Shown here piece after piece: positions 15,886-52,875 of a stretch of DNA of 64,000 bases. Position numbers and translations under genes: made by a program. The notes below the pieces were generated by a model. The model saw only the letters and a list, made by a program, of their open reading frames with translations, was not told the origin of the DNA and searched no databases. How positions within the stretch are numbered: position 1 is the stretch's first letter; each line of letters opens with the position of its first letter. This DNA comes from Laetmonice hystrix (taxonomy: Eukaryota), in the NCBI GenBank assembly GCA_965235115.1, contig OZ249436.1, positions 27,716,001 through 27,780,000 of the forward strand, given 5' to 3'.

Positions 15886-15997
15886 GGGGTCCGTTCCACT
15901 AACGAAAGACGTCTTTAGCAAAGACGTCTCTGGAAAGACGTCTTTGGGCTCAACGACTATTTCAACGACGTCTTTCGGGCTTAGTGGAACGCACCCC
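15886..15997. mobile_element. Short palindromic MITE
   Basis: TIRs GGGGTCCGTTCCACTAA / TTAGTGGAACGCACCCC; interior of AAAGACGTCT repeats. Confidence 0.65.
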
Positions 15998-18900
15998 AGT
16001 GTTTATGCTGAATGTATATTGGACCACGTTGACTAGAATAACATGACGACACAATTACCTGTGATGTAATTTGCAATGGGTTTCTATGTCCTTGTCAAAG
16101 TCCTTGTCAAAGTTATTGTTTCCGGGGTTAACTCATCCTCCCCCGCTCGGGGTTGAACAAGCAGTTGATTCATCCCCCTCCCGCCTGCCCGTCTATTCTT
16201 AGAAACGCGTTCCTCGCAGCGCCACCTGTTCTGCCGTCTGCGGCCGCGCCATGAGATTACACACTGCCTGAGGCGCGATTCATAAAAATTAGCGTGCATT
16301 TCTAGTTAGCCAATGGGAACGTTCCCACGGTAAAGTTTTTTGTTGTCGAAGCGAAGCGTTGTCGAAGCGAAGCCAACGATAGCAGCAACGGGTAGGCATT
16401 TAATCCCGACACTATAGTGACAGTGAGAGGAACAACTTTGAGTTGACAGGGCTGCAAGAACACACACTATAACTAACTGTATTGTTAGGGAGCGACACAT
16501 TTGTTTATCAGCCACCTGGGCAAGGCTATCAGGCATTTTTGCGAGAAGTAAGCCTTCGGTGTGGACCGCTTGTGCAGGTGGAGCGCCGATGACAGGTCCT
16601 ATTAATATTCATAAGGTTGACCTCAGGGTCAACTGCCGCCCGGTTAGCATGGGCTGCGCTCAAGGGGTAGAATGCAGGATGCGCGATGCCCCTTGACAAC
16701 TCAAGATGGGGTTAACTTAGCGGCGGGGAACTAGAAACCGCTCCTCCCATCACATGGTTGTAAGCAATGGGAGAGTGGTTAATAAATGCCTACGGACCCA
16801 GGCAAACTTTTCTCACAATCACGCTGTCCATGTCCTATACTCCTCACATAATTCTGACAATAAGTGGTGCGCCTTAGGCCGCACTGAAGTCAGCCCCCCC
16901 CCCCTTGGCAACCAATTCCCCCTCTAGAACTTTCTGAATTGAACATGCTGGCCCCCCTCCCTTAGCAAATTCTACCCCTAAACTGCCCCTTACCAATGCA
17001 TGCAATGCCTTCATCAAATAGGCATCAGCAGGTAAACTTTGATACTTTATATTTTACACTGCCACTGAATAAGACATCATAATAATGCTTGGAATCCCTT
17101 CGAATCCAAAATAAGCTAAATATTCCCCCCGTGTCAAGCATCCAGAAGCCTCTGTGACTTTCCTTTTCCTGATTTTTGGTCTCCTGGCAGTGGCATATAT
17201 CATTATTAAAATATAACTGGCAAATAGGGTGGGACTACACTATTGCCCCCAACATTAAAGTTGGGCGGAGGGGGGGGGGGGCAATAGCCCCCTTGCACCC
17301 CCCTCCGGTTTCCAAGCCTATGGTAGAGAAACCGGACCTTTACTCAGGCAAGAACATACAGTCAACACCACGTTTTTCAGAAATAAAGACAGAACGGTCA
17401 CGACCATCTTGTCTGGGTATGACTTATGACCTATCACGGTCGGAATTAGTGCAAGCGACATCCGCTCGCAAATACCGCCAATCCGACCTAGTATTGCCAG
17501 CTCTCGTAGAAGCCATTCGGCTGGGGCTATCTCCTTTCATTAGTCGTAAGCTTACCTTTACTGACGTCCAACCTCTCGGACGAGATAGCTGATGCCCCGG
17601 CAGAACTGCCATACCTGACCCCACCACTCACTACCAGCCGCTGATCAACCACACTCAACGACCTGGTTAAGTAGTTGGAATCTCCGCGACCAGCGCAATG
17701 TCCAGACGACATCTTCCTTCAATTCTCCAGCGGGAATGCCAATTATTGCTGTTTACCACGACGACCTTTCATGAACGTGACCTTTTCTCCCGTCTCCGTA
17801 TTTATCGGAATGCTCCCCTTGAAGCACATGAATGAATATTTTCTTTTCACAAAGCTGATAACTTTCATCAGCGAACCTACTCCAGCGGGTACTTTCCCCA
17901 GGGAGGACAATCCTCTAACGATTTAAAATGATTGGCCTTATTCACCATGTTGTATAATCTGATAGCTTTCTTGTGTTTTAAGGGAGATAAGGCGGCAAGT
18001 CCTCATGAAATGAGATTATGGAGGAAGGATGATCAACATTTTAAAGTCTCCACATGGATTTGTTAAAGTTTATTACGAGTATTAGAATGCATATCGATAT
18101 AGGTTATATGCACAACCGTTATCTATTCAAATCTGGCTGTGTTTTTCTCAATTCTTCACATTCTTATTTGAGATATTTTAAGGGTTCTTCCAGATTTGAT
18201 TACTTCCTTTCCTACATCTTTAATTAATCACCGAAGCCACTTCCGAAATCCACTTCAAGCACTTATTCCCCAGCAATCAACCGTTCTTGGTCGTCCGCGT
18301 TTGATTTTGTTCATTTCCCTCATTACCCACGCCTAACCTCGCCGCACGCCTTAAATCTATACATATCCATATTAAAGTGTAGATAAAGATTGAACAAGTT
18401 CCAAAATTGACATTCTGAAGATATACCTGTGTGATACTTGGAGTCTAGTCAATGACACCACTAGTTACCTCATTTTGTGTCGATTTTAACAGCAGACAAA
18501 ATCACCTCCTATTGAAAAACTACAGTCTTTTCCCCTAATTTTGACATATCTGCACTGGAAAGATTGAGTGAGTAGTTGGTGTTTCGCGCTGGAAAGATGA
18601 TCGGAGCGTGAGAACCAACACATAGCTCGATCTGATGTCGATCTGATTTTCGTGTACACGTTAGCTAATACTACGAATTCGATCCTATAAACATAGGATC
18701 GTATCTGCATCATGTTATAATTGTCAGGTTGTCATTTCATAATACTAGTATGGGCATGATTATTCTGTTACGCATACCTCCGCTTTAAATCAAACTTCTC
18801 GGTTACATTAGCAGGTAGGGGATTGGGCTTACTTAACGGCAAGTGGATGTTACTACTAATGAAGAGTAGTCATCCGGGCGGAATAGGAACCGACACTTTA

Positions 18901-19091
18901 TCCCTGAGTAAACTACGGCGTGTCTCTCGTTGTGGGTTGTCTTCTAATGCCGCTATCTATCATGTAAAACTACCGCTAACATGTAACAATAGCCATAATT
19001 ACTAATTAATTGTACCAGTAATTTAGATCCATCGTGTGCTCCAGGGGGAAGTAGCGCTGATGTAATCCCACCGTTGACGTCGAATGTGAAA

Positions 19092-19394
19092 GCGTCAAAA
19101 AATGATAAGAGTCTCAGTCTGGCGGTAGCAGAGAACAGTTCGACGGCAGTATGCGTCAAAAAATGATAAGAGTCTCAGTCTGGCAGTAGCAGAGAACAGT
19201 TCGACGGCAGTATGCGTCAAAAAATGATAAGAGTCTCAGTCTGGCAGTAGCAGAGAACAGTTCGACGGCAGTATGCGTCAAAAAATGATAAGAGTCTCAG
19301 TCTGGCAGTAGCAGAGAACAGTTCGACGGCAGTATGCGTCAAAAAATGATAAGAGTCTCAGTCTGGCAGTAGCAGAGAACAGTTCGACGGCAGT
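19092..19394. repeat. 61-bp minisatellite, ~5 copies
   Basis: Unit gcgtcaaaaaatgataagagtctcagtctggcagtagcagagaacagttcgacggcagtat at 19092, 19153, 19214, 19275, 19336; near-identical, no spacers. Confidence 0.95.
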
Positions 19395-20288
19395 GAGATC
19401 AGACGGCACAACATGCAGTTAATGGATCCAAACTGACAGCTAAAATATTCCAACATCATTCGTCATCCTTCTGTGCATTGTCTTGAGAAGACGTCGATCT
19501 TCTCTCCCTGTGGGGTTTCTCGGCCGACCACTTCAGTAAAACTTTCTCTTCATTGTCGCCTCGCCCATACCCGGTAAACTGTTTGGTGGCAGCAGTGAAA
19601 CCGTCTGGTAATACTTTGGACCGAAACATCTTCCTCTCTGAGGCAGACGATTTGATAGGGCACGGTTGAATGTGCGCCTCTACCAGTCCTGCATGAGCAC
19701 CCGCGACGCGGCTGTCCAACTCCAGGGTATATAAAAAAAATCACACAGACATGATCATGATGTTAATAAAAGCGTGAAACCTTGGTCTACCAATATGTCT
19801 GGACGGAGTCGCTGAAAATAAGGTTGTTTCTGGTTCATTTCTTTTTGGTCGTCGAGAGGTCTTCATCAAAATTGTCCCCTGTGTACTGAGGTCTATGTTC
19901 TTAAAACTTTCCAAGATTTCTTGGCGACCATGAATTCACTAAATATGAAGCTTAAACGTCTCTCAAAGTGCCTACGAGGGGGGGGGGGTGGTTTATACCC
20001 TTATAGTGGATTCGCAGCACGCCTCCAGGGTGTCTGTGTTCTTTGCCCAATACAACGAAGAGTAGGCTATATCCGATGGCCAGCCCTAGGGCGTAACCGG
20101 GGGGGGGGGGGGGGGGGGCGCCCCCTCACACGGTTGGGTTTCCACTTCGCGCTACGAATTTAATTCGCCACCTTTTCAACTCTGCCCCCCCCAAGCATGG
20201 TATTCGGTATCCCGACATAGCTCATTGGCTTCTATGAGAAACATCTATAGATGCTACAGGTATAGGCCTACTGGGATGCATCAGCGGT

Positions 20289-22009
20289 GGGCCCGTTTCA
20301 TATCTAAGTTTGTGCGCTCGTTAAGGTGTCAAACATGTTAATGAACGAAGAACGCGTTAAACCCGTTGCATAACTCGTAAACCGGGCGTTAACATACGGA
20401 ATTTTGCGTAATTGACGCGTTAAATGGAACTTTTTAGCGCGGATAAAAAATCTTCGCTAACTGATCTATCGCTAATTAACGATAGTATCGTTAATTAACA
20501 CATTATTGACATTGAGCATATCAACAAATATGGCGGCTAGGACAGTGCCATACCCGCATAATGCCATCCCAAAATATTTCCGTTAGGTTTGTCTGACTCT
20601 CCGCTATTATGCTATTGTATTCACTGATTGGTGATTCCCAGAATAACGTCCAAATCAACAGTTTGCAGGGCTGTACTGTCAGTCACGGAATTCCTTGCCG
20701 AAAACCATGAAACGTATGTATCCAGTTACCACGTGAAGACCAATACGCCGACTTGGCCTATGAATTTTACATGATGCATCGAATGCTAGGAACAACAGAA
20801 TGCATTGACTGGTGCCATGCTCCAATCAAATCGCCAACCACTGAATGATGAATACTTGTATATTAACAGGAAAGGGTATCATTCTTTGAACGCGATTGTA
20901 TGTATCCCGATTTTAAGTATGACATTAATTTTAATGAATGTGTACGTCTATGTAACGAATGTACATAATTATAAACAATAGTGAAACTATTGTAATTTGG
21001 GTCCCATATGCTTAAATACATAGATCTATCTGTACCTGTATCTTTTAAGCGGTATTCTATCCTTAATTTGTACATTTTTTAAATGTAAGGGAATATTGAA
21101 ATAAATTTTCTTAGATCATGTGCTATTATTTTTATTCCCTTTACAGTGTGATCATAAGTTCCGCCATGTCGCCTCTTTTTTAGCGTTGGTTCCATCTGGA
21201 CCCATATGATTGGAACGCAGGAGTCTCACTTTTAAGGCATTTTCCACCAAAGTGTGCACTGCATAAGGTTTCCACCGTTGACGTCGATTCTTTTTTCCTC
21301 TTCTTTGGACTTCACTCTCTTGTTGGCCCTCTTCTTCGTCGTCCTCCAGGACCTCTTTCATAAATTCATTATCCTGTGCATCTGGGCCTGTGTAAAAGTC
21401 CTCATCGCACGGGTCACCCCTGTCGTCTTCATGGCGACGGCTGCGCTAAATATATATGATAAATACATGTATATAGTTAACATACAGCTTCTTATAGGGG
21501 CACAACGAATATGACAGGTATACTGCGTTAGGTTGGGATGTCTGGGTGATAATAGGGGTATATGTGATATATTTCTGGAGTCGCATTATCTATTTATTCC
21601 AATTATGAAATGTACATGTAGATTAACTGTCATTACTTACTTTCACCGCTTGAGACATTTCCTTCCTTCCGTATCACACGAGGGCCTACTGGTATACTAT
21701 TGATGGATGTGCTACCCGTAATTAACGAAAGGTGGTGGCAGTGTAGATCAGATTCATGAACGCTCGCTGTTGGAGTCTCTCTCTATTAGCGTTAATTAGC
21801 TAGCGCTTGATTCCAGACCGGCGTAAAGTACCGGTAACGCAGGTTTGGCGTCCTCGTAAATTAACTATAACCCGTCGGTCATCTTTTAGCGCGCGGTCAT
21901 TTTATGAGTTATGAAACGGCGTAACGCAAAATGCGTTAAGCTTCGCGCTAGTATATTAAGTAGCGCGCATTAATTAACGCATTTTCTTAACGAGTTATGA
22001 AACGAGCCC
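20289..22009. mobile_element. Defective PIF/Harbinger transposon with transposase remnant (+) and Myb/SANT-like ORF remnant (-)
   Basis: TIRs GGGCCCGTTTCATA / TATGAAACGAGCCC. Broken + frames at ~20590-20900 read LTLRYYA..IGDS..SKSTVCRAVLSVTEFL..ECIDWCHAPIKSP..YINRKGYHSLN (HARBI1-type DDE motifs). Minus ORF 21152-21361 RWK..LVENALKVRLL..GTNAKKEATWRNL resembles the Myb-like second protein. Confidence 0.8.
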
Positions 22010-23109
22010 CAGTGGTGTTTTTTTCTTATTGGTTAAAATTGTGTCAAAATACATAACTGATTTGGCTCTCAAAATTCTGACGTAACATTTCGGCCTATAT
22101 GGCACTGCTACTGAGGTCGTGTTCTCATTGCAGGGTTCTTGTGGGTAATCAAAATCTTTAATGTAAGTAGGTAAGTAAGTAAGTAAGTAATCTTTTTATT
22201 TCAGTGACATATGTCATACAGGATTGGTCATGGTTGTCATTTGCAAGGTTTGACATCAAACCCATATTGGGTTTCAAGGGCACTACATGTATATCGGTTT
22301 GTATTAGAATATTCACATGGATGTTCTGCAGGGTGTCCAAATTAAACTATATTATATATAAGGTTGCGTCTCCTGAGATAACGGTATATTTTGCTGTGTA
22401 CTTTAAAACCGATTTTTGTTCCATCAACATCAGAAGTTTTGACTCTTTGGGTACTGTCTCAAAAATGCCCCGTCTCTGAGACGTTTTGACTGGCCGCATG
22501 GCGGCTATCATATATATGGCCTTGACAACCAGCTAACGTTCTTCTTTAGCGCCATAAAATAGCGACCCTTCAAGTGCATCAGTTCCCATCGATGTACCAG
22601 CAAGTCATGCAAGCAGCAATCGCGCAGTCTGTCGTGGTGAGCACTCAGAGCTGACAAAAGCGACGCCTGGCGATATCTCTAAGAGTCATAATGGCATCTA
22701 AGAGCATCTCTTCCTACTCTAATTTGATTTCATATGCAAAGGAGAGCACCGAATTGAAAGTGTGACGCTGTTTATTATCTAGTAATGCTTCCTGGAAACT
22801 GGTAAGTGGGTAAGAGACAATGGTAATGAAGATGATAGCCTGCTCTCCTAGTATTTCGTAAAGGGTGTCAGGTAGATTGAATAGGGAAACGAATTTATCT
22901 GACACATTTTCTCCGACAACCTAAATTTATGTCTCTTCTTCACCTGCGAGCAAACCAGATATTCTAACTCCGTAAAGTCTGAGTGGGGAGTTCTCCATTT
23001 TCGGCAAGGCGACAACGCGCGAGTTTGTTGTTGTGTATACATTCGGGCCACCCTACAACATGGCGCCCTCCGTTGTACAGCCGGGACATGACAAAGTCAG
23101 TCGACGGTG

Positions 23110-25117
23110 TATGGAATACCGGTGACGAAATTCGACTTTCACTTCAACTTACACATACACTTGCACTTCAACTTTCACTTTCACTTCAACTTAGACACTT
23201 CAACTTTCACTTACACTTCGGTTTCATCTTTCACTTGCACTTTCACTTAGCCCTTCATCATGTGACTTCGGGCCGTATTTTAGAACTATCCTTAAGGTAA
23301 AGGATTTCCTTTAGTCTATTGCAATTCAATAGACAAAAGGAAATCCTTTGCCTTAAGGATGGTTCTAAAATACGGCCCTTCGACTTCGGCATTTACGGAA
23401 ATGGCCGAGGGCTTCCGATGTATTTCTTGCACACATGCGTACAATATTAAAAGCACAGTTTTTGCGCGAAGATGGCGGCAAGGAACGTGACATGTTCATT
23501 TTACATGTTCAACATGTTCATTTTATAAGGATGTTGAACACCCGTATTGAATAAAACAAGGGTGTAAGTTGACTCCTTGGTCTTCAGTTTTCTCCAATAT
23601 TTAAAGAAGTGATTCACAAACATTAAAATGACATGTTACAGGAGAGAAAAAATATTACTGTAATCCTTCGTGTATAAGATGCACTCGTGTAGAACTTCTC
23701 GAAGAAGCACCCGAATTTTGGGGCCAAAACCCAAAGAAGAAATTACTACAGAGACCCTCGGTGTCAGCCTCACTGGCTCAGATTTAACACAGTTGGTAAT
23801 CACTGCCCCCATCACGTCTCAACAGATGTGTGAAGATACCTTGGTCACTTGAAAGGTGTGACAGTAACTGAATATATTCTGACCATCAGGATATATTTAG
23901 TTCTTATCACCTTTTGAGGGCGTGACATTACCTGACTAATTTGACATCTTTCTGGACAGTTAACAAGCAGAGCCAGTTCCTTCTGACAATGGACTTTTAC
24001 TTAGTCTCGTGTAGAAGACGCACTGGATTTTCAGGGAGGAATTTGGGAGTGAAGAAAAGTGCGTCTTAGACTGTACATGCAAACGTATTCTGGGCAAATT
24101 AACACAAGTTCCACATTAGCGCTTTACACAGAGCCTCCCGTAGAGAAAACCAGAAGGACATTGCCATGAAAAGGCTTTATAAAAAGCGCATTTTAATATC
24201 ATTATTTACCTTATTGAAATATGATAAAAAAAGAGTTCACTTTACAATTAAAATCTTTATTATTTCCTCGATTTAGTTATTGGGTGGCCTAAAACTAACG
24301 CCGTCCACAACTGCAATCCCCCCCCCCAATACTTTTTACTTTCCGATTAATGTTTTTAGCAAAATGTCAAAAGAAGGCCTACAGTTGGGGGGGGGGCAAG
24401 CCCCCTGATTAATCCCTCACTGATTAATACATTAATCTTGAGCAAAAGGTCGGCACCGAAAGCTCTTTAGTTTGATGCTGAGAAGCCGGCAAATAGCACC
24501 GATGGCCTTTTATATTCCCAAAGTCGGAGGCCCCCCCCCCTTTCGGCGCGTCGCACCTTCTGACACCCCCCCCCCCCCCCCCCCCGCAAAGAAAATCCTG
24601 GGTCCGCCTCTTGGGGGAGGGGGTGAATACACTGTTATTTTGCAATTCTTATATACATAAATCTCGGGGGAAAAGGTCAAACACACCAAGATTGTCCCCC
24701 CCCCACTTTGAAATAGGCAGCGGCGCCCCTGTGTCCCCCAGAAAATTTTGGAATTTAAGGTGTAGTTTGGTGATATCTGGTCAATTCGGAGCACACAATA
24801 ACTGAAGTTAGGAAGATCTTGGACTGTTGGGCAGGTGGGGGGTGCAGGGTACTCCAGGAAGTGCTTGCGACCTTTTGAAATTAGGGGGAGCTTGGGCTGT
24901 GGGGGGGGGGGGGGGGGTGCGTACGCACCCTGCGCACCCCCCCTGCCCTGGATACGGGCCTGCTACCAGACACAAAGTAAAGAAGTCGAAGACAGTTGAA
25001 CTCGAATTCGAGGTTGAACTCGAAGTTAAAGTGCAAGTCGAAGTTGAAGTCGAAGTTAAAGTACAAGTCGAAGTTGAAGTCGAAGTGCAAGTGGAATTTC
25101 GTCACCGGTATTCCATA
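23110..25117. mobile_element. IS3EU-like non-autonomous DNA transposon with nested insertions
   Basis: TIRs TATGGAATACCGGTGACGAAATT / AATTTCGTCACCGGTATTCCATA (TAYGG...CCRTA); exact 6-bp TSD ACGGTG (23104-09, 25118-23); (C/A)ACTTC hexamer arrays at both ends. Confidence 0.75.
23270..23378. mobile_element. 109-bp near-perfect hairpin MITE nested in the IS3EU-like element
   Basis: GGGCCGTATTTTAGAACTATCCTTAAGG...CCTTAAGGATGGTTCTAAAATACGGCCC, flanked by TTC on both sides. Confidence 0.8.
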
Positions 25118-25855
25118 ACGGTGAGCCGAGTGTCTACCACTTGTCAATTGACGTTAGCCTATAGGTGGCACTACTAGCCTATATGCACTGACCTAGCACT
25201 GTGGCCCTCTGTGGGCGATGCAAGCAACTACAGATAACTGAAGCAACGAAAGAGCTTGCTACAGACGATATTAGATTAAATACAGCGCAGTGGCGCAATT
25301 CTGGATCTCCTACGTTTATGAGAGGGGGGGGGGACTTAGTGACGTTGTTAACTCGTTTTCGTCTTAATGACGTCACTAAGTCGCTATTACGAGATAATTA
25401 CTTTCGTTTCGTGAGCAAAATAGTGGAGATCTCGTAATAACTTAGTTACGTCATTAACTGGTTATTATTACTCGTTAGTGACGTCACTAAGTCGTTATTA
25501 CGAATTAATAACGTCGCTAAGTCGTTATTACGACATCTCCAAAAATTCTTTATCATGATAGGAACATTTTGTTTTTCTTCATGTCCCCAACCGGGCTCCG
25601 TAGATTTGCCCATTTAGTTTGCCTTGTCAGACCCAATAACTTTCTACAGTCTGGTTCTCTCCGGAGACATATTCATGGAAAGCCGTTCCCAGGTGCCGCG
25701 AATACTTTTAGTAGATAATATATAATAAATAATATTTATTCTTAGCCTACTGTTTATTCCTCACTGTCAGTGCCTCCAAGTGCTGCAGAGGTAAGCAGAA
25801 CCACTGTCATTCGTTGTCAATGAACGTCAACCATCATTGCAGGATCTCTGACACA

Positions 25856-28800
25856 ATGGCGTCGAAAGAATCGTCAGGATTCGGTCGCGTGAATCGCTTC
25901 ATACTGCTTCTTATTATATCGGCTAACATTCATGTTCCTACAGGTGGGTAACTAGGTCTATTATATCGGCTAACATTCATGTTCCTACAGGTGGGTAACT
26001 AGGTCTATTATATCGGCTAACATTCATGTTCCTACAGGTGGGTAACTAGGTCTATTATATCGGCTAAGATTCATGTTCCTACAGGTGGGTAACTAGGTCT
26101 ATTATATCGGCTAAGATTCATGTTCCTACAGGTGGGTAACTAGGTCTATTATATCGGCTAACATTCATGTTCCTACAGGTGGGTAACTAGGTCTATTATA
26201 TCGGCTAACATTCATGTCCCTACAGGTGGGTAACTAGGTCTATTATATCGGCTAACATTCATGTTCCTACAGGTGGGTAACTAGGTCTATTATATCGGCT
26301 AAGATTCATGTTCCTACAGGTGGGTAACTAGGTCTATTATATCGGCTAAGATTCATGTTCCTACAGGTGGGTAACTAGGTCTATTATATCGGCTAAGATT
26401 CATGTTCCTACAGGTGGGTAACTAGGTCTATTATATCGGCTAACATTCATGTTCCTACAGGTGGGTAACTATAGGTCTATTATATCGGCTAACATTCATG
26501 TCCCTACAGCTGGGTAACTTGGTCTACATGGTCGTCCTTAGGGGGACGCGATAGGTGCGGTCGCAGCCCCCCGTTCAAATTCTCCCCAATTTCTCTACAT
26601 AATATTAGCAGGTAATAATGGTAAGAATACAGATGTTACCGTTTTAATAGCATAATATTGTGAGTACATCAAAAATGCATGCAGTGTGTGCATACGCCAC
26701 AACACAGTCATGCAGTGCCACGAGCTATACGGGAGTTGTTTTTCATATTCCTACGCACACGGCGATGCAAATTATGTTCTGTGCAAATTAAAGGCTGTTC
26801 TGTCAGTATTCACAATATATAGATGCTCGATTTGTACTAGTGAAAATAGATTTCGAATATTGTCAGCATTATTCTCGGGAAAATAACGGATTTTTTTTTC
26901 ACGAATTCTAGAACTACATTCGTTGTGGACTGTTACCAAAGGTGTGCTCTACACCACAACAGCGCAACCTTCAAACGATGCCCGATGGCGGCACAGTCAT
27001 CGTCTTTGTGTGCACTCCAGCAGGTTTTTGTAATTTGTCCACCATCGGGGGGAATTTGACAGTTGTCTGTACTCATAGAAGGTGTTAACAGAATCAATAT
27101 ATGAAAAACATAAAGTACGTCAGTGGTGAGTAGGTGAACATAAATCTGAAGATTCCGGTCGATTCGACGAAGTATATTTTTTATGTGAGTAAAAAAAATA
27201 TTTACTTTGTGTTCACATGCTAACTCGTGTGTAAGTGGATGCCTGGCCAAAAGTGGCAAATTTTAGGTAAGACAAACTATATACTTATATCGCTAAAGTT
27301 GTGAATGGGGATTTAGCCAATTTTTGTTTGGATGACTGGAGAATACTGAATTACGACGCCGTCCAAGCATTTCAGGGGAGAGAGAGTCATGTAGGATCCG
27401 CATTACTGCCGGGCATTAAAATGTGGCGTTTAACCACAAAATCACGCCGGGGGTGTAGCCAGGGGGGCCGAGGGGGGCCATGACCATCTCCCCATCCCAA
27501 ATTTACATACCGTATAAGTATGTATTTAGCTTGGCTGTCCCCGCCCCCTCCGCATTCCAGGTCGTATAGAGAAGTCGGCATCAGTCGGCACAGGTCGTAG
27601 GGCCATCGTGGTTAATCGTAGCGGGATCGTCGAGCTTCTATCACGACCACCCGTGAATTTTGGGGCTACAATTAGTCGGGGTAGATCGTGGTCGAGATCG
27701 TGAAGGTGTGACATGGGCTGAATGGACAAACAGGCTTTAAGCTCCAATAGAGGTTTCTGACGCCGTGCAGTATAGTACAACATGCAGAAGACGCCTATCG
27801 AATCAAGCAAATAGTCTAAGCATGACGGTCCCGTTGGGGTTGTGGGAATGTAAACAGAAGCAAGTGAATCGACTCTGCCCTGATTCAGTACAGCACACAG
27901 TGAACGATGCTAAGGCCCCCCCCCCAAAAAAAAATTCCCGGTTTCTGGTCCGAAGAAAATGTCAAAATTGGTGCGGTGACGCGTTTTTTTTGGGTGATAG
28001 CTGGCTAAGATGGTAAGCCTCATAAGAATTATCATGTAAAATGAACTCATAGATAAGGACCGTGACCTTTGCTGTCATCGCTTTGAATACAAACACATTT
28101 CCGTTTCAGTGTTAATGAAATATCCATTACAACAATGGTTAGTTTTAAGCCTTACCACTAGGTGGCAGCACAATTCCCAGTCATCCAAGGTGAGGGCAAG
28201 AAAAAAAAAACACTGATGCGCGGCATCATTCGGAACACCGAGCCCTTTACGATGTAGAGAGACTCGGATACCAATCGGAGGTCGCCATATTGGGTCAGAT
28301 GGGGTCAGCGCACTATTGTCGTAGCGTCCCATGTAAACAACGGCCAGTGTCTGGGCTGTGATGCTGTCAATAGACGGCTTTCTTCGTTAATAGTTGGCAA
28401 AAAACTGAAACCGAATTTGTCACGGATTGTAGCCTTTCTTGACAATGACATTAAGCCATGAAAACGTGGACTATTCCTTAATTTAGCATGTATGATCCGT
28501 GTGATAAGAGGATCGAATCAAGGTAGCCTGTCAAACCGTTACACGCCACCGTTGAATCGTAACACCCGTTTTTCTGTGATGGTTTGAACTTTGACTTCTT
28601 TCATATTACGCCGATTGTGACGGTTCATTTTGACGACTTGACTCTGTTGAACACCCTTGTGTTGAATCCAGTCAAATCAAGGTAAATTAATACGGCAAAT
28701 CCATACTCAAAGTGGTTCCATATTATGAGCTAGCTAGGGCGACTCGGAGCCCGCGCACCGCCGGGCCGCCCTAGCTATCCCCACCGGGAGCCACCCGTGC

Positions 28801-31800
28801 GACCCTGCAGAGCTGTCGCGAAGTTGCCGGGTCATTTTATTCGATTAATCTATGTTTGGTCAAAGTTGTTAACGTAACAACAACTTTATAATGATATCTG
28901 GTCTATATGAGTTTACTAACACCATTAATAGAGGCTCTACCCACTATATATATAAGGGACTCAATTTTTGCCGGCATCTCACTACCTGTGCCAGTCTTGT
29001 GTCATTGCGCACTGGGGCGATACTAGCCTCGATCCCGTGACCCTTTGCGCGCAGAGCTTGCACATAGGGCCACGCAGTGGCCACCATTATGGATGGGGCT
29101 GGCCGAGTGTTGCCATGCAGATCGGCGGGGGGCGCGTGATGGGCCGACCTCTGACCATGGCAACTAGGCCAAGTTTTTTCCACTTTTGAGGGTAGAAGCT
29201 CAGAAGATCCTATATATTTACATCTATTAACGCGTTATTATATTTAGAAATAATGACTTTAGATTTTAGGCCTAGTTTAGTCGTTAGGCTAGAGGACGCG
29301 CATGCGCAAACCACCAGTCGCGCTTGCTGCCACCTAGCGACTAAAGAGAGTACTACTTGCTGTCTGTCAGCCCCTTGTGATAACGGGGCGGGTGTTCGGC
29401 CTAGGGCGATACATGGAATCCATGTATATCAATGCGTCGAGGGGTGTCCGAGCACAACTACAGCGAAGCGACCGGAAGTTGGGCCGAGGTTTTCCGAATG
29501 GCGCGGCATCTGAAGTGACGCGCGCGCGGACCAGAAACCGGGAATTTTTTTTTGACCTAAGATTCCGCCTGACCAATAGTAGGCCTACACTTCAGCTGCA
29601 CTGGTCAGAGATGACTTTGTACTCATTTTTGCTATGCCAAGGGTTGGCTGACCTCGAAATATGTATACGTGGGAAATCTTGCTTAAAGATAAACAAAAAT
29701 GCGAAGCATGTATAGTTTAGAGTGGCGTTCCACCTTGGCAGTTTAACACGGCAGTGGACCTTCCCTGAGACGTCTACGGTTATACCACACCAATGACACC
29801 CTCATCAAACCTGAACAACATCAGTGGGCTTTTTCGGACTCTTATTGTCTATGTCAGCATCACACCTGCGATGGGTAAGTATAAGTGTGAGGGTATCTAG
29901 GATAGCAGGGGGGAGACCCTTTATAACTAGGCCTACCATAGAACTGTGTGTGAGGTTTGATCGCGGAATCTTCAATGTCAATCGCTTTTAGAAACATTTT
30001 CTTCCAGTTTTTTCTCTTCCGCTTAGCCGACTCTTCAGGAAGTCTAGCCAAGGTATACATTGGAAACTCTCTCTAATTTTAAATTTGCACTATTTCCCTT
30101 CTTCCATTCTTTTCCTCCATGTCCTTTTGTTCTTCTTGGATCTGATTCGAATTTAGGAATCTTTAACCACGGTTCACGTGATATTTTCACACTCATGTTC
30201 AAGTGGCAACTGCTCGGAGTCTGCCAGCCGAAAGTGCCCTCTACCGCCATCTGGTGGACGGATACGACACTCGTGTCAGACCGGTGGAGAGGATGAACGA
30301 CACTTTGGTCGTCAAGGTTTCTCTCTCTGTCATGCACCTTATCAAACTGGTGAGTGCACTACTGAAGAAACTTTCTACATGCTTTCAGTTTCATACTATA
30401 TGTAGGGCCTATGCGGTGGGGAGTGTAAGTTTTTCAGGGGAAAACTCGAAAGGTCAGAATTGATCATTACTGTTCAATGGTGACCATCGACACCGGGTTC
30501 TATATTTTTAATTCTGGAATATAGGTCGCATGTTATGTAAATAGGGCCTCAGTTTGCTCTTCCGCATCGCATCTGCTTGGTTATGCCCACGGAATGGTGA
30601 TGTCTATATGTCGACGTTAAACAGATTATTTTTAAAGCCTAACATGCATTATTAAAACCACAAAGTCAACACAGGACGCACTACTTTCGGGCACACAGCG
30701 ATCGCAGTGCCATGCAGCGTTTTTGGTCGTAAAGGAGTGTGACAATAAACAATAAACAATTTAAGAATATCAAAAAAAAAAATAAAATCGGCGGTCAAAG
30801 CGTTGCATAAATAACCCCATATGGCTTAAAATAGTTTCCATTTTAATTTTCGAGTAAATGGTGGACAAAATCTAATCAAGTTAACATTGAATTCAATAGA
30901 GAATATCAGTAGGCCTATCGTGCTCAGCCACCAGATGTCATGACTGTTCCCACGCCTGTTTAACTTTTAAGCACGTATAAGTGGCTCCCACTATGTGTTC
31001 AGCACTTTGCTCCCCGGTTCCTTTTTTAAAGAACCGTCAACCAGGCCAGGGTTTCCGCCAGAAAAAAAATTAAGGTACGGACCAGAGGAGGGGTTAGGGT
31101 TAGGGTTAGCCTAACCCTAACCCTAACTGCTGTTACAGATATGTGAATTAATCAAATAAAGACTGCATATACTGTACAACATTATCTTTGATTCCTTCAA
31201 GTTCCTCAAGGCATCATCACTGACATCAGGAGGTTTTTATCACTTCATGGAAAAATGGTTACCCAACGATTTTTTGGGTACGGATCCGTACCCTGGGAAA
31301 ATTTTAGGGTACGGAATTTTACCCATTTTACCCTCTGGCGGAAACCCTGCAGGCGGATGTAAATGACGACAGCATCTGACATCGTAATGTATCAATAGGT
31401 TTATTCTGAACATTATTATCGTGTCAATAAGCTACCTGAGCGTACTGAAACAAGTCTGACGCCAAGAACCGTTTGTATCATTTTGAATGTTTGAGTGCGC
31501 CATGAAGTACACTCAACTATGTCATCATGTACTTACCACGTTCATTGCCATTCTATATGAGAAAGACAATGGCGGAAGGCAAGGGAATGTGACAGGTGAG
31601 TGTTTTGTAACAGAATAAGACAAAATGGGAAGGGTTGATCGGTATTTTTTTGGGACCTACTTTAGTGTCCTTATTTATGAAGTCAAAACTCGGAGGGCGT
31701 GGATGTTGTTATAGGTTACACAGTATTCATTGTGTTGTTTTAGGTTACACAGTCATTATTCATTGTGTTGTTACAGGTTACATTATGTATAACTTTGTGT

Positions 31801-34259
31801 CTGCTTTCAGGACGAGACTAAGGAGACGATGACGTTAATGGCGTGGCTTCCGCTGGTTGGTGAAATATGACAATATTATGTAAACCTGTAAAGTTATGTA
31901 AAAGGGTTCCTTCCGTCTATGATGGATAAGATGTCTCGGGGGAAATTGACACTTTGCAATTCTGTGGCAGATTGTATGTCAGGTTTTTTTTATACTTGTG
32001 ATACGGAACAGATCGGATTCGGTCATGTAAAAAAATGCGAGCGGAGCGTCCTTAGGGGCGACCATTAGATATTGGGGGGGGGGGGGGGGGGGGGCTGAGT
32101 GTTTTTAGAAATAAATAATTTCGGGTGGAAAATTGGTGAAATAAATAAATTCTCCCTGGCCATGCCCGAAATAAATAATGTGGAATCTGGAAATAAATAA
32201 TGAGTCTCGTGAAATAAATACAATTTTGCCATGAGGGTTGGGAAAAGAATTGACGCAGTCCACTCTGTGAAATAAAAAAATATACATGTATTCTCAAGAA
32301 CCCCCCCTAAATATCTAATGGTCGCTCCCTTACAAGTAAACAGGAATTTACTCAGCAGCAGATTAGTATGGACATTGGGAAAGGCGTTATAGTTACATCT
32401 AGTGTTACTCGTCATTATTTCAGCTTTGGAACAATCCGTTCATGAGATGGAATGAAAGTGAGTTTGGTGGAAAAAATGAAATATTTATAAAGGTCGATGA
32501 GATATGGAAACCACCAATACATCTATTAAACATGTAAGGATGTCTCAGATTACCGAGTTAAATTACTTTCTTAAATGGATACATTATAATTAAATTATGT
32601 AAAAATAATAATTTTACGTAATGCACACACATCAATCCATATGTTGAAGGATAAAAACACCATTTTAACAGTTCTCTTGTTAGGGGCCGAGTTTTGAACT
32701 CTAATTGGCATCTGGAAGTCGAATGATTTCTTTCAGTCATTTTCGGAGTCAGAACATTTCATCAGATCAACAACAGAAAAATTGGAGGTGCATGGAATGG
32801 AATATTCCACCCCCTCATGAAAGTTAAATGATCAGCCACTTAATGTATTATAATTATTATCATTAACTAGCATCGATGTGGAGGCGCCCGATGCCGAACT
32901 CTATGGAGACAGGCGATGTGGAACTGTACAGAGCAATGGAGACACCATGACAACACCAGTTTACAAACTCGTCACCTCCTGTCCCTTGAACCTCTACAAA
33001 TTCCCATTTGACGTCCAGGAGTGCCGAATTACCTTTCTGTCCTGGACATTTGGTGTCGATGAAATGAAGTTTGAGAAACTTGTAGATCCGTGGCTGGCTG
33101 CTGGATATGTCCCCGGGAAATGGTCCATCACCAAAATACAGCTTGCCAATATCAGGGTTCTGCCGGCGCAGTACCCTCCGGCCAATTACAGCATGGTGAC
33201 ATTTACTGTTACTCTAAGGAGAAACCCAATGATTGGCATGCTATCCTTGTTATTGCCGATATTTCTATTGAATATGGTTGTCATCTCGGTTTTCTTTGTC
33301 TCCGCTGAGGCTGGGGACAGACTCACACTTGCTGTAACAGCGTTTCTGTCGTTCGCCATCTTTATTCTGGTATTGGTAGAAATACTTCCAACGTCAGGCC
33401 AGGAGCTACCAGCGTCGGGTAGGTAGCAATATGATGTTTCATTGTTTGATTGCTTGCTTCATTTACACCCAATTCTGGTTTGCCCAATTTTTTTTGGGTG
33501 CGCTTGTTGTCCACAGCCCCCACACAATTTGCAGCGCCTACGACGTTGGTTATTTCCAACACCACCCTGGGTCCAGTGATATAAGATAGCATTGTTATGC
33601 CCTTCCCGAATCGGGAAATAAGTCTCAATCATGGGCAAAGGGGGGGGGGGGGGGAGTTGCCCTCCGGGATCGTCTACCACCCCCGCGTTTCTTTTGCCTT
33701 CTTAAGTTCACATATTATTTTTGTCAACCCCCCCCCCCCCCCAGTATTTCCTGCGGACGCCCATGGTCGCAATCAAAGATCTCTGACTCGCCCAGAGAAA
33801 TCGCTTGATGAGTTTAAAATGTAACATATTTCGGGGATAATCTGGCGGGAGCCTTTGTCGTTGCCCTAAATAAACAGAAATTTCTGTCCTTCCATTGTCT
33901 TGCTAACAGGCAGAACGTTCATTGCCAGTCTACTTCTGTCGTTTGTGAGTATCCTGTGGGCCGTGGTTACCCATTATGTACTCAACCATCACGGCGACCA
34001 GACGGTTCCACAGTGGATGAGCCGAGGGAAGATATTCAAAGGTGGCAGGGAGCAGACGAAGAAAACCATAGAATTTCAACTGGCAAACAAGGAACCAAAA
34101 CCTCCGGGACATAGGGCCCAAAACTCGGAACATGACCAAAGTGAATACGTCGTGTTGACGTGGAAAGACGTCATGTTCATGGCGGACAAAGGAATGTTTG
34201 TTTTATATGTTATCAGCAACGTCATACTGATCATATACATAAGTATAGCATTTATGTAA
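25856..34259 (+). CDS. Cys-loop ligand-gated ion channel subunit (nAChR/5-HT3-like, non-alpha type), ~428 aa, 6 exons
   Basis: Exons 25856-25943, 30204-30349, 31811-31855, 32424-32533, 32871-33418, 33910-34259 join in frame (1287 nt). Motifs YDTRVRPV, WNESEFGG, IWKPPIHLLN, Cys-loop CPLNLYKFPFDVQEC, loop B SWT, four hydrophobic helices, pre-M2 AGDR, pre-M4 WKDVMFMADK. The 45- and 110-nt exons are typical of nAChR genes. Exon 1 is assigned from hydrophobic segment and phase only. Confidence 0.9.
25911..26524 (+). repeat. 47-bp minisatellite (13 copies) spanning the exon-1/intron-1 boundary of the ion-channel gene
   Basis: Unit tattatatcggctaacattcatgttcctacaggtgggtaactaggtc; CAG|GTGGGT every 47 bp from 25941 to 26458; last copy has CAG|CT. 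Confidence 0.95.
27911..29558. mobile_element. Putative TIR element in intron 1 of the ion-channel gene
   Basis: Inverted pair aaaaaaaattcccggtttctggtccg (~27927-27952) / cggaccagaaaccgggaatttttttt (~29527-29553); superfamily and exact ends uncertain. Confidence 0.45.
31047..31349. mobile_element. hAT5-like MITE carrying inverted telomeric repeats
   Basis: TIRs CAGGGTTTCCGCCAGA / TCTGGCGGAAACCCTG; 5-bp TSD CAGGC; internal GGGTTAGGGTTAGGGTTAG-CCTAACCCTAACCCTAAC. Confidence 0.75.
32055..32329. mobile_element. MITE with TTA target duplication (Harbinger/Zator-like)
   Basis: TIRs GGGGCGACCATTAGATATT / AATATCTAATGGTCGCTCCC; TTA flanks; internal GAAATAAATAAT repeats. Confidence 0.7.
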
Positions 34260-36347
34260 ACCCTGGCTTAGGCCTCAATGTATGGCTGTAATAGTAAAGA
34301 TAGGGCCTACTTTAAAGACAGAAACATGTATAAGCCTAAGGACGAATTTCTCGAAACTATCCGCCAAAATATTGCACCCTATAGGCCTAGATAATTATGT
34401 AGAGGTAGGACAGGCCTACATTGTGCTGCCACGCTAAAGCATCTAAACGTCGTGTCCTGCATGGTCCTAAATGATAAATGTTCCGTTGCTGACGTAATAT
34501 CTTTACTTACTGTAAGCTAGATGGTCACCCATATTGAGTCTTCCCCGGTTTCCCCAAGCAATAAAACTTCGCCTTGGAATGAACCCAGCTGTTGAAATGA
34601 TTACAGATTTCCATGGTGACAGGAAATTGTCTCCCCCTTCCCCGGCCAAAGAAGCAACAAGTCAAGAAGTGTATCCTCATAATGCTTCATCTTTCTTTAC
34701 TATACATACACACGCACAAATATACAAGTTTCGACGAAAAATATGTTCCTCTTATATACACAACTTCTAACGCCGGATTCGGGCAACAAGGAAAACAGCT
34801 AGGATGTGAGATAGTTCAGACAACATCGGTGCCCCGTAATGGGATAGAGTATGACAGGAAACGGCTTGGTATTAAATACAGATATGACGGGAAACCACAT
34901 GCTAGAAGTAAATGGGCACTACTACACACGACTCGTTCTATATTGCACGTCGTCCCAACCTTTAGATGGCGTAAGTTGTCAGAGAATACAAACACCTGAT
35001 ATGTCACCGTCTCCCGAACTCCCCAACCCTCCTTGCAAAGTCGACATTACATTCCTCCAGGGGGCGCTTCGCGTCACTGAGGCGGGCGTGTAAGATTGTG
35101 CACATGGATTGTGTGGGCAAAGTTTGCATTTCACGACAACTCAACGCCGAGGCTACGGGCTGGCGTGCTTCGGTATGTTGAGATCTTCAGAAAACTCTGT
35201 ATTCAAAAAATCTGATTCTGACATTTAAGCTAGGAGTAAGTCTTGGAGCACCGACACACATTGTTTATCGTATAAGGAGCATCTGCGTCAATACAAACAT
35301 TTGGACTCTGCTCGGGTAAGTAGATACAAGATAGGTCCGAAAGCCTACGGGCTGCAGCGCCACCAACATTCTGAGAAAAGTGCCAAAAATTGGATAAACG
35401 ACTATAATACCGAGTTTTCAAATAATTGTGTGACCTATGCTTACCTATATAGTGCTGAGAGGTGTTAAACACTGTTCTATCACTATACTGTAAATCGTAT
35501 AAAGTGTCATCAAGTAAAGTGGAGAATGTTTTCTAAACTTCCATGGAGGTGTTCGACAGCCGTACAGTACAACAATAGACGTCCATCTTAGCAATCAAAT
35601 GTTTGCCCTTAAAAATATTCTACTTCACAGCACCACCAGCGGTTTACCTTGGCGCAATATATTTGTCCTTTAAAAAAGTTTATACCCGCATATAGGCCCG
35701 AATGATATGAAAACAACAATCTAGCTGTAGATTATTGACAAGAAAGCTGTACCTGAATTAAAAGGGCATGTATAGTTCGTATTCCTTCTACCTTACACGA
35801 GGTGTATCGAGTCTTTTACACCGTCACCATTACGGCAATTCCAAGCAAAAAGTAACTGATTTCGCTCTTTGCTTCAAATCTTACTTCTTCGGTCCAGAGT
35901 CATAATTATTAAAACTTTATTTAAAAAAACGGTTTCACCATCACAGTCATTCCTTGCATCTTCTCTACTAAACTATTTACAGAAGAAAGTAGGTGAGTTT
36001 ATGGGGATTTCGCATAATATACATCAACTCTTCCCGCTATGTGCTGATTCTATCATTATCATTATCCATGAGCCACATATTTTGAAATTATTATCTCGAC
36101 CTATACAAAAAAAAGGAATGGTACGTAAAAATTGTAGACTTCTTTTTTTGGATATCTGTTCCTTACAATATGTATACGTGATTTCTTTTTATCGTGTGGG
36201 TACATCAGTACATCAGCCGAATCGTATCTGCAACCTGGTGCAATCCTACCTCGAATCACCACCTCCTATAACATTATCACCCGACCATTGACTCTGACAA
36301 CAACATCATCATCATTATCATCCCACAATATCATGACCATCATCATC

Positions 36348-39300
36348 TCATTGCTCCACGTCCTCCAGCTGGTCGTCGCCCTCCGTCTCCTCAGGTTTGG
36401 TGAACTTCCACAGCCGAGACCTGTCGTCGTCATCGTGGACCTCGCCCACGTAGACGGCCTCGCCGTCTGGAGACACGGCCAGCGCGTGAGGTTCGTCAAA
36501 ACCCTGCAAGTCACCAACATCGTCAGTTCAACAAGAGTTCGCCAGGGGGCGCGCACACTTCTGAAGTCATACTCGGGAGGGCAAGGGCAATTTTCGGACT
36601 GGGTATTAGGACATTTCTCTATCATATATATAAATGTCCATACATAATTATGAGCAATGAATAGGGCATTCCGGGTGTTAAAGATGTGGACTTTCGCCTT
36701 ATTATTAGAATGGGCCGAGAGCGCATGAGTTGAGGGTTACTTTTACATAATTCCAAAGATTTAAAGAATATAATTAAACTTTCCTATCTAAACCCATAAG
36801 GATACCAGAAAGAGGAGAATGTTCTTGTAGGCGTTCACTTGATTATTCGTGCACGAACTAAGATTGTCTCTGTGGAATATATCTGTCTATTTGGGGACCA
36901 ACGAGCAGTATGTCCTCCTTTTTGATACCGTATACCTATCTATTTGAGCTGAGAATTTGAGCTAAGAATGAGACCTACCCATAAGAATTAATATTGTTAG
37001 GAGTCCATGAGCTAAGAATGGCCTCCCTTTTATTGCCTACCTGTTTGTTGGGGGCCCATGAACTGAGGATATCCTCCTTGTACCGACCGTCCTCCTTCAA
37101 GTCAATGGTGAACCCGGTGCCTGCACCGAAGTCATCGTCATGCCAGCCGACAGCGTACAAGAATCCATCTAAAAGTGGAACAAAAAGTCATCTTCTAGAT
37201 CCCTGCCAAAAATTAGTGCATCACTGTGTACATAATACATGTAGGCCTACCTATCGCTATGATCGGTGAACGGGGAAAGCGGGTTCCTCAAATATACACA
37301 TACCTTTAGGACTGTAGTCAATGGCGTACACCCGGCCAAGCTCAACGTCCGTGTATTCACGTTCAGGAGTTCCAAATTCGCGGTTGTCTTTCAAACCAGC
37401 ATTGAAGCACAGGATCCTTGACATAAAGAAAAGGTCCTCCATCAATTAAAAATAATTACGCAAATGATTGGAATTTTTGAGGAACTTTGTGTATGGAAAT
37501 ATCCTGAACCGGGGAAGTATATAAAAGTCAAGCAAATGTTAGCAGACAAGTTAGCAGTATTACTGTACAGCTTTGAACTGCGTCGTACCTCATATTTTCT
37601 CTATCAGCAACACACAATAGGTCAAGGTCCTCAGCCAGAGCGAGGCTATGTGGAATGTTGAACTCGTCATCTCCGAACTTCCCTAGCAGGGTGCCGTTGG
37701 TGTCAAACTTTAATATGCGACTGCGACAATATCTAGAGAAATTGAAAAGGTATTATTATTACATTATATCCATCTTTCTTTATCATGATTACATGTCAAT
37801 AAGAAAGCTTTTTAAATGTATTCATCAAATATTATTTGCATGTATCGCATTTTTTGTTTCAAAATTCCAAGTACGAAGAAGTACACTTTATTTGGCAGAA
37901 ATCTAAGTATATGATTATGCCCGTCAAGGGAGATCGCACTGTAAAGGTTGGTAGGGATATAGTAAAGGTTTGTAGGGATATAGTAAAGGTTGGTAGGGAT
38001 ATAGTAAAGGTTTGTAGGGATATAGTAAAGGTTGGTAGGGATATAGTAAAGGTTGATAAAGATAATTATTATTGACTACGATTTAACATTTACCCATCAG
38101 CCACGAAGACGTGTCCGTTTGAGGCGGTCACTACGTCCGCTGGCATACAGAAACGTTCTTTGTCGTCATTGCTCGTTGCTGGTTCAAACGGTTTACCCAG
38201 GGTGAGCTCAGGAGTGTCAAGTTTGTCTGGTGAGAATTTAAATACCTGGAAAGTACGTAATCAAATGATAGAGCATTATATTGTACACCATTCCCCGGCT
38301 CCTGTGTTTATAAACTCCTCTATCTACGCTAGATTTGTAACCAAGTCGCTGCGCATTGGAGGTTTTCTTTTCCTATAATGAATATGTTCTAAACAAGGTT
38401 CAATTTTATCTCCTCTACCATTTCTGCTCTAATCAGTCTTCATGATTATATTTATATTACATCCTAAAGTGTTACTGCTACGGCTAATTCCACAAATTTC
38501 GCGTGGGATGTGGATGGAGCACCAACCTGGTGCATGGCGACATCCGTCACCCAATAGTTGCCCTTGGAATCAATTGTGATACCGTGTGGAAGGTAGAATC
38601 TGCAATTGCCAAATACATAGAGATGTTTTAAAAGGCACGAAGAGCAACCGCTCTTCCCTACTCAAACGGGTGCTTACTCGAAGAGTAGAAATGTGATGCT
38701 TAGTAATCAACTACTTACCACTACCATCATTGCAATTTCTTTTTTAATTAAAACGCTTCAATGTTGGATATGATAATTAATTTCTGCCATTCTACAACGT
38801 TCGAATGTGCCTGATATCTAGGCGTACCGCCCAAGCACCGCTATCTATGCCCATTCCTACATTCTTACACTCAATGGGACAATTACAAGAACGCTATACC
38901 CTCACAATACACCTGCAGAGATGGCATGTTCAATATACTTACTGGTTCGCTCCCCAGGAGCTGACCTCGGCGCCACTTTCAGGATCGATAATTTTTACCG
39001 TGGGTTTGGAGATGGCCCCCGCATCCTTGTGCTTGTAGGTATGATCAGGGTTGAATCTACAACGCAAACGGTGATCCTATAATTACAGAGTTGATCTTTT
39101 CTTTCAAATATTCGTTTCCTTAGCCCTGTCATGCACCATATTTATGGCCCAGAAAAGGCGTTTGTCAGCCAAACTTTCGTTCGTTTATTCCTTCACGTTC
39201 TTTCACCCCTCCATTCCTGCCTTGACGATAACTTAGGGGGAACAATAGCTTTAGCTACCATGTATTTCCCTAAGTGAACATATCCCGAAACTCTATCCTG

Positions 39301-43959: not shown

Positions 43960-44076
43960 CAGAGTGTCGCCACTTGTATAACAGAGTGTCGCCACTTGTA
44001 TAACAGAGTGTCGCCACTTGTATAACAGAGTGTCGCCACTTGCATAACAGAGTGTCGCCACTTGTATAACAGAGTG
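43960..44076. repeat. 22-bp tandem repeat (~5.3 copies)
   Basis: Unit cagagtgtcgccacttgtataa. Confidence 0.9.
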
Positions 44077-52699: not shown

Positions 52700-52875
52700 C
52701 AGGCGCGGATCCAGGAATTTTTGCAGGGGGGGGGGCGAAAGATGCGAGCCGCTGGAGAAGGGGGCAAAAAGTCTGGGGCCCTTCCCCGATAACATAGCAA
52801 AAACCTAAGTTGGTACTGAGCAGGGGGGGGGGGGCTGGACCCCCTGGACCACCCCCCCCCCCGGATCCGCGCCTG
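52700..52875. mobile_element. hAT5-like MITE in the last intron of copy 2
   Basis: CAGGCGCGGATCCAG ... CCGGATCCGCGCCTG; 5-bp TSD GGCAA; empty site in copy 1 (~45805); truncated remnant in copy 3 (~61562). Confidence 0.8.

Follow-up and report, generated by a model that had tools for sequence, protein, structure and literature searches.

A 13-copy minisatellite across the probable exon 1/intron 1 boundary of a nicotinic-type receptor gene in Laetmonice hystrix, most likely spliced from its first donor

Genes and features at the locus

The window analysed here is a stretch of 64,000 nucleotides of Laetmonice hystrix DNA; positions are counted from its first letter, and a slash within a motif marks the splice point. 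Analysis of the window revealed a six-exon gene model with AG/GT ends that joins into an open protein of 428 amino acids (Table 1), in which the phase-1 first exon joins exon 2 at 30204 in frame. In addition to the PF02931 matches listed in Table 1, exon 5 matched PF02932 with an E-value of 3.5e-05, a match below the curated cut-off of PF02932. The best PDB match of exon 5 was nAChR alpha-7 (E 7e-23), and 5-HT3A was also among the best. Exon 6 matched no channel family in Pfam. Nicotinic receptor genes typically have exons of 45 and 110 nt and a first intron in phase 1. Judged by its predicted protein, the host gene is an intact nicotinic-type Cys-loop receptor gene, that is, a gene for a Cys-loop ligand-gated ion channel. 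The best 150 representative homologues show 24-36% identity and hold no close orthologue, so that there is no orthologous exon 1 for comparison; the search with exon 5 among longer proteins came to 0 of 1515 candidates.

Table 1. Positions of the features found or considered at the locus (numbering of the window)
Feature	Position	Strand	Details
Probable first coding exon (exon 1), signal peptide	25856..25943	+	88 nt, phase 1 (29 codons + 1 nt)
Minisatellite, 13 x 47 bp	25912..26526	+	unit = 32 nt of exon 1 end + 15 nt of intron start
First (authentic) donor CAG/GTGGGT, in unit 1	25941..25949	+	consensus match 8/9
In-frame TAA if donor 1 is passed	25949..25951	+	31-aa product
Units 2-12, eleven spare donors	25959..26477	+	donors identical to donor 1 in sequence
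Terminal unit 13	26478..26526	+	donor lost (CAG/CT); AG and CTAAC retained; acceptor score the lowest in the array
Hypothetical stop-carrying exon	26510..26620	+	unit 13 AG if paired with a donor-like site following 26611 or 26620
Rival or alternative first exon	29793..29874	+	phase 1 (27 codons + 1 nt); donor strong, hydrophobic core weaker
Exon 2, start of ligand-binding domain	30204..30349	+	146 nt; PF02931 positions 1-39, E 4.3e-06
Exon 3	31811..31855	+	45 nt; open frame, AG/GT ends
Exon 4	32424..32533	+	110 nt; six-exon model
Exon 5: Cys loop, M1, M2	32871..33418	+	548 nt; PF02931, E 5.9e-15
Exon 6, probable M3 to M4	33910..34259	+	350 nt to stop codon

Three other acceptors for exon 2 (30157, 30220 and 30235) were rejected, being out of frame or across a stop, and 30228 is an in-frame alternative. 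Three sequencing runs, from one sample and none of them recorded as RNA, match 30100-34500. Over 26478-31000 the contigs of these runs cross the edges of exon 2 uninterrupted, as DNA does, and the matches listed there include neither an intron-type joint nor anything of unit 13 of the minisatellite described below. Four differences in exon 2 were found on one contig, and most of 26630-29650 is high-copy repeat by the same contigs. Contig depth in the first bin, from 26478, lies above that of the single-copy bins, depth not being copy number.

A total of 185 ATG-to-phase-1-GT candidates in 15000-30130 were ranked by hydrophobic core plus donor match, and exon 1 ranked first. Its score was reached by 2 of 1000 Markov simulations (best-score null). 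The start codon has A at -3 and G at +4, and the donor matches the consensus at least as closely as the other four donors of the gene do (8 of 9 positions against 6.5-8). An in-frame ATG is also present upstream of exon 1, at 25820. A message that passes donor 1 would read ACA GGT GGG TAA, and an identical 31-aa product results from all 12 of the 12 sites downstream of donor 1. An earlier, sequence-only reading of this DNA had proposed an ion-channel gene with a signal-peptide exon, as well as this read-through and its product from any downstream donor; the open model, the PF02931 matches and the exon 1 score above its null agree with the former, and the site count agrees with the latter.

Structure of the minisatellite

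Analysis of the boundary region by Tandem Repeats Finder revealed a minisatellite at 25912-26526 with a period of 47 bp, 13.0 copies and 97% matches, as expected from the 13-fold amplification of the exon 1 donor that the sequence-only reading had described. The reported set of 12 CAG/GTGGGT donors and a 13th mutated to CT was found exactly so: the last exonic bases lie at 25943 + 47n, the final one at 26460, and the donor position of unit 13 reads CAG/CTGGGT, at 26509. Other details needed correction. The array starts at 25912 and not at 25856; the first unit does hold the exon end and its donor, but the exonic part counts 32 nt instead of about 33 nt; and CTAAC, which had been ascribed to each unit, is present in only 8 of the 13 units, 7 of which have a GT following it.

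The remaining five units (4, 5, 9, 10 and 11) carry CTAAG in place of CTAAC. The eleven spare donors are accordingly preceded by CTAAC in units 2, 3, 6, 7, 8 and 12 or by CTAAG, and in units 2-12 either motif is followed by a stretch with 9 pyrimidines in 13 positions and then by CAG. GTCC occurs instead of GTTC in units 7 and 13; unit 12, with an insertion of 2 nt, is 49 nt long; and divergence is greatest in unit 13. At the three variable positions, units 1 to 13 read CTG CTG CTG GTG GTG CTG CCG CTG GTG GTG GTG CTG CCC. The order of variants in units 3-7 repeats in units 8-13 with one unit added, which suggests a block duplication. There are five distinct variants, one of which changes the branch motif (now in 5 of 13 units) and another of which destroys the last donor. 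Given this order of the variants, an assembly artefact is unlikely. Beyond unit 1, GT is retained at the donor in 11 of 12 units, and only unit 1 sits in coding context.

A 26-nt unit probe gave 13 matches in the 64-kb window, all 13 within the array (mean of 100 shuffles, 0.00); no copy of the unit lies elsewhere in the window, and metagenome contigs held no exact match to the probe. The chance that one of the four larger arrays of the window spans a junction is about 0.13, a rough value for which 59 junctions were assumed. Two other placements of the array were rejected: it does not serve as coding sequence, having stops in all three frames, and by inspection an insertion into the exon would leave no credible donor.

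Acceptor-like character of the repeat unit

The donor consensus is MAG/guragu (PMC1557585, as given in that source). An AG before GT belongs to this consensus, and AG/GT alone is therefore no sign of a ratchet point, here taken as YAG/GT with a pyrimidine tract and a branch point 10-60 nt upstream. The earlier proposal that each unit has the layout of a ratchet site thus loses its AG/GT argument and keeps the acceptor-like score described below.

Comparison of acceptors was based on a matrix of the 19 acceptors inferred in the window by frame and homology. The pyrimidine tract of the unit (9 of 13) lies within the range of the five acceptors of the gene itself (8-10), and a branch-like A occurs at -18 in 8 units. 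The unit scores 5.5; unit 13 scores 3.4, against 4.7-5.5 elsewhere in the array. In leave-one-out comparison the unit score is above 7 of the 19 inferred acceptors, including that of exon 2 (1.9). Scores at least as high as that of the unit were found for 6.7% of the 7,187 AGs and for 42 of the 230 YAG/GT sites elsewhere in the window, and for 15 AGs in the rest of intron 1. The combination of CTRAY with at least 9 of 13 pyrimidines is rarer, occurring at 1 of the 230 background YAG/GT sites, or at 8 with the looser YTNAY. By its score, the unit is a passable, middling acceptor on this matrix of predicted sites.

When synonymous codons of the exon tail were redrawn 100,000 times, CTRAY plus tract appeared in 2.1% of the draws, and the matrix score of the unit was obtained in 0.15%. 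Codon choice therefore does not fully explain the acceptor look. This is a post hoc test, made on a locus chosen for that look and with a matrix from 19 putative sites, and the excess is accordingly taken as unexplained and not as proof. The altered branch motif in 5 of 13 units, together with the dead last donor, appears unlike a maintained ratchet ladder.

Most likely explanation

Our analysis suggests that the locus probably carries a boundary-spanning minisatellite of the F7 or 'mirage' type that is spliced from its first donor, and that the array has most likely arisen as a by-product of repeat turnover and is tolerated. In place, 47 bp spanning the boundary of exon 1 and intron 1 would have been duplicated and then expanded to 13 units by ordinary minisatellite turnover, presumably through unequal crossing-over or slippage. 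Every later copy follows the first GT, which leaves the coding sequence unaffected. On the precedents of F7 and the lancelet, the spliceosome would commit to the most upstream donor and join 25943 to 30204, and the 12 further copies would be discarded along with the 4.26-kb intron. The branch-point and AG look would have been inherited from the last codons of the exon (Ala-Asn-Ile-His-Val-Pro-Thr) plus the AG of the donor, and would not be maintained. Any leakage to donor 2 or 3, or by way of internal AGs, is expected to be slight. Against this explanation stand the use of two pseudo-donors in IFI6 and CBS, the acceptor score above 7 of the 19 inferred acceptors, the rarity of CTRAY plus tract at background sites and in the codon redraws, and the setting of F7 exon 7, which is an internal mammalian exon.

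As it most likely stands, the locus adds one more tolerated boundary-spanning minisatellite. It also offers a clean test case for the choice that the spliceosome makes between donors of identical sequence; at this probable first coding exon any wrong choice would give the 31-aa product.

Alternative explanations

A leaky donor that dampens expression is unlikely but has precedents. Under this explanation the nearest spare donors would compete with donor 1, a fraction of the transcripts would contain a stop at codon 32, and expression would fall with the number of units. The eleven spare donors are the same as donor 1 in sequence and each yields the 31-aa product. Two pseudo-donors are reported to be in use in IFI6 and CBS (PMC1557585), the 31-bp VNTR at CBS exon 13/intron 13 is tabulated with lower enzyme activity (PMC1395315), and repeat length is reported to shift splicing at thousands of human loci (PMC10078293). 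Given the CBS VNTR and the CBS and IFI6 pseudo-donors, the idea is not new in kind. Against it, downstream donors in F7, whether identical or stronger, are described as not competing (PMC1557585). Furthermore, the leak, where it is known, goes to the two nearest sites, and these exist from three units onwards, so that 13 units need add little. The part of the idea that relies on nonsense-mediated decay (NMD) is weakened because a stop this close to the start codon can, as reported, escape NMD (PMC9661723). Masking of the spare donors by RNA structure was considered and rejected: local folding found donors 1-11 similarly paired (mean unpaired 0.33-0.40), and hence no structural switch.

That exon 1 is not used at all is distinctly unlikely. 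In that case the gene would start at 29793-29874 or be barely expressed, and the array would lie outside the spliced transcript. The rival exon ranks second among the 185 candidates, shares phase 1 and an equally strong donor with exon 1, and would leave an intron of 329 nt, similar to the other introns of the gene. The mostly high-copy content of 26630-29650 and the leader of 38 residues in our model, compared with a median of 26 in nine full-length homologues, also favour it, although one of the nine has a leader of 40 residues. Its score, however, is within chance, being reached by 172 of 1000 simulations as against 2 of 1000 for exon 1, and exon 1 has the better start context. A cruder null with two fixed thresholds put the rival at 1 of 150 simulations; the fairer best-score null was preferred. 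Because exon 1 beats its null and the rival exon does not, the array very probably lies on a real exon boundary, as far as gene prediction can place it.

The middling acceptor score keeps in view recursive hops over two or more units, from donor 1 to the AG of units 3-12, which would be traceless in the mRNA; we regard them as very unlikely. The length of the removed segment is too short for steps of one unit and is sufficient for hops of at least two, and since the unit is a passable acceptor, hops of at least 94 nt would be possible. From donor 1 to units 3-12 the introns would measure 94-517 nt and would rebuild CAG/GTGGGT exactly, with at least 77 nt between donor and branch A, a workable geometry from unit 3 onwards. 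The acceptor score is within the range of the inferred real ones, and rarer than codon choice predicts. A duplicated AG/GT is reported to yield a working intron with 6-16% efficiency (PMC3265369), and recursive splicing is described over a broad range of intron sizes, in smaller introns probably as a stochastic minor route (PMC10156609). On the other side stand the changed branch motif in 5 of 13 units and the loss of the last donor, a loss that would come at a cost were the AGs in frequent use. Assembly should be crowded by the donors, one of them lying 15 nt into the unit of each AG and others every 47 nt, and 15 equally good AGs are present elsewhere in intron 1.

A hop to unit 13 would remove 566 nt and rebuild CAG/CT. 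As predicted from the letters, it would be a dead end that needs a new donor, opening a stop-carrying exon of 102 or 111 nt with an immediate stop. That the AG of unit 13 opens a genuine coding exon was rejected, the frames being short and stop-ended. The array as a self-made ratchet ladder from donor 1 to any of units 3-12, with unit 13 as a poison-exon trap, is likewise very improbable. If it were true, the amplified exon end would by chance be a usable 3' splice site, and unit number and the order of CTAAC and CTAAG would set the amount of surviving receptor mRNA. If hops through internal AGs were true, recursive sites and a poison exon would arise in one step from repeat turnover, and splice-site choice would be testable by unit number and unit type. 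In the literature searched by title and abstract start, no recursive splicing through a minisatellite was found.

Stepwise removal of the array as 47-nt introns with zero-length exons, as the sequence-only reading had offered, is extremely improbable and that proposal is not supported: although each 47-nt step begins with GT and ends in AG, 8 units have a branch-like A at -18, and human introns of 43 and 49 nt do get spliced (PMC4463651), donor and branch point are only 30 nt apart, where about 50 nt is reported to be needed in human in vitro splicing (PMC6692369), those short human introns are described as requiring a G-rich enhancer (PMC4463651) while the unit has a single GGG within the donor, the 17 introns inferred in the window measure 135 to 4,260 nt, and the steps into units 4, 5, 9, 10 and 11 lack CTAAC in a ladder that terminates in CT.

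Comparison with known systems

The first-donor reading preferred here can be compared with five kinds of known systems. In the Rogers model of intron birth, as described by Hellsten et al. 2011 (PMC3265369), duplication of AG/GT puts an acceptor downstream of a donor, as in the array, and can create a removable segment. The model concerns a duplication within an exon, which has to be removed by splicing, whereas the copies here follow a donor that is already present; at 47 nt, one unit is also shorter than the minimal functional intron, which the same source puts at roughly 60 nt (PMC3265369).

The units resemble ratchet points in part, in having YAG/GT, a branch-like motif and pyrimidines upstream, and a donor that splicing to the site would rebuild (PMC10156609, PMC13196383). 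Recursive sites defined by a sawtooth pattern are described as conserved and as lying in very long introns, with medians of about 550 kb in two human studies (PMC10156609, PMC13196383). Unlike these, the sites here follow one another every 47 nt within an intron of 4.3 kb, are copies of an exon end, and have a drifting branch motif.

Boundary-spanning donor arrays are also reported as the 31-bp VNTR of CBS intron 13 and the minisatellite of IFI6 (6-16) intron 2; for the CBS/IFI6 arrays, 15-20 units and 25 pseudo-sites are given (PMC1557585, PMC1395315).

The 'mirage' minisatellites of the lancelet, reported for Adh3 and for the globins BflGb6 and BflGb9, combine normal splicing with length polymorphism, and are described as evolving in concert, with the boundary units excluded from it (PMC3087553). 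As in the mirages, exon/intron boundary copies stand in tandem in an invertebrate, with a unit inside the reported range of 10-160 bp; many units keep AG/GT, and inner units are homogenised and a boundary unit diverged (PMC3087553). In the mirages a polymorphic length and normal splicing are established, whereas for the Laetmonice hystrix array, from a different animal, normal splicing is a prediction.

Human F7 intron 7 (IVS7) carries 5-9 copies of a 37-bp unit across the exon boundary, with the donor UGG/gugggu; the first donor alone is reported to be used, without competition from downstream copies even when these are strengthened, and first-donor use is also given for LMNB2 and PDGF (PMC1557585). 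Shared with F7 are a first unit across the exon/intron boundary, a series of identical donors that continues into the intron, and the intron bases from +1 to +6 (GUGGGU). The unit make-up differs, being 4 nt of exon and 33 nt of intron in F7 as compared with 32 nt exonic and 15 nt intronic sequence here, and so does the setting: 5-9 copies at an internal mammalian exon in F7, 13 copies here in an invertebrate, probably at a first coding exon. Unlike F7, the exonic part is acceptor-like, and 6 nt beyond the donor there is a stop in frame. For F7 the use of the first donor is proven, and CBS and IFI6 are the reported precedent for a nearest-donor leak and a copy-number effect; for the present array first-donor use is proposed by analogy with F7 and the lancelet. 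In the F7 and lancelet arrays, as described, the spare signals are mostly ignored.

Acceptor region of exon 2 and the array unit

Comparison of the 47-bp array unit with the exon 2 acceptor region of the Cys-loop receptor gene revealed that the unit tract (25925-25936, +) and the authentic acceptor tract (30189-30200, +) are identical at 11 of 12 bases. The first AG past the long pyrimidine tract preceding exon 2 lies at 30157 (+), exactly 47 nt, one array unit length, upstream of the in-frame acceptor at 30204. This match in length is probably a coincidence, and the AG at 30157 is unable to rescue a downstream donor because the stop codon is met earlier.

Upstream and alternative first-exon candidates

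The features identified in the window are listed in the table. The putative 5' UTR intron lies just 5' of the exon-1 ATG; if it is real, short introns are functional in Laetmonice hystrix and an in-frame ATG at 25820 is spliced away. The second signal-peptide-like exon candidate, whose score was reached in 172 of 1000 simulations and is within chance, could on its sequence be an alternative first exon of the receptor gene. Among the allelic differences listed, one falls in this candidate and is synonymous.

Features identified in the window (window positions)
Feature	Position	Strand	Remarks
Secreted-protein gene	~7030-10230	+	
Minisatellite, 61 bp x 5	19092-19394		clean
Putative 5' UTR intron, 52 nt	25791-25842	+	donor-like site after 25790, acceptor-like site before 25843
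Second signal-peptide-like exon candidate	29793-29874	+	phase 1; strong donor; 329 nt upstream of exon 2
Short inverted telomere-type repeat	~31093-31128		receptor gene intron 2
Multi-exon gene	~36350-43425	-	signal-peptide first exon
Minisatellite, 21 bp x 5.5	37941-38055		clean
Minisatellite, 22 bp x 5.3	43960-44076		clean
Gfo/Idh/MocA-type oxidoreductase gene, three near-identical tandem copies	45136-49046	-	intron-containing
	52039-56448	-	intron-containing
	60901-63392	-	intron-containing; incomplete, cut by the window end

Other repeats and genes

None of the three clean minisatellites other than the 47-bp array lies across any exon junction inferred in the window; the 21-bp array starts about 40 nt into an intron of the minus-strand multi-exon gene. 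That gene, in which an inferred acceptor at 38245 itself reads CAG|GT, presumably resembles peptide-amidating lyase, and the secreted-protein gene is one that we take to resemble ependymin-related proteins. In the telomere-type repeat, three copies of GGGTTA are immediately succeeded by three copies of its reverse complement. The best match of the oxidoreductase is from krill. An oomycete and a bacterium are among the sources of the other named matches, and the majority are without a name or labelled 'predicted dehydrogenase'; the distribution is patchy.

Alleles and subunit type of the receptor

In exon 2 (30204-30349, +) four differences (30231, 30301, 30305 and 30307) were found on one contig of one sequencing run. 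One replaces Glu by Gly, another replaces Asp by Glu, and the remaining two fall within a single Leu codon and jointly still encode Leu; such differences could serve as markers for allele-specific expression. An adjacent cysteine pair sorts alpha from non-alpha subunits in this family. The receptor model (25856-34259, +) lacks this pair and on that ground looks like a divergent non-alpha subunit, one whose M3-M4 loop is short.
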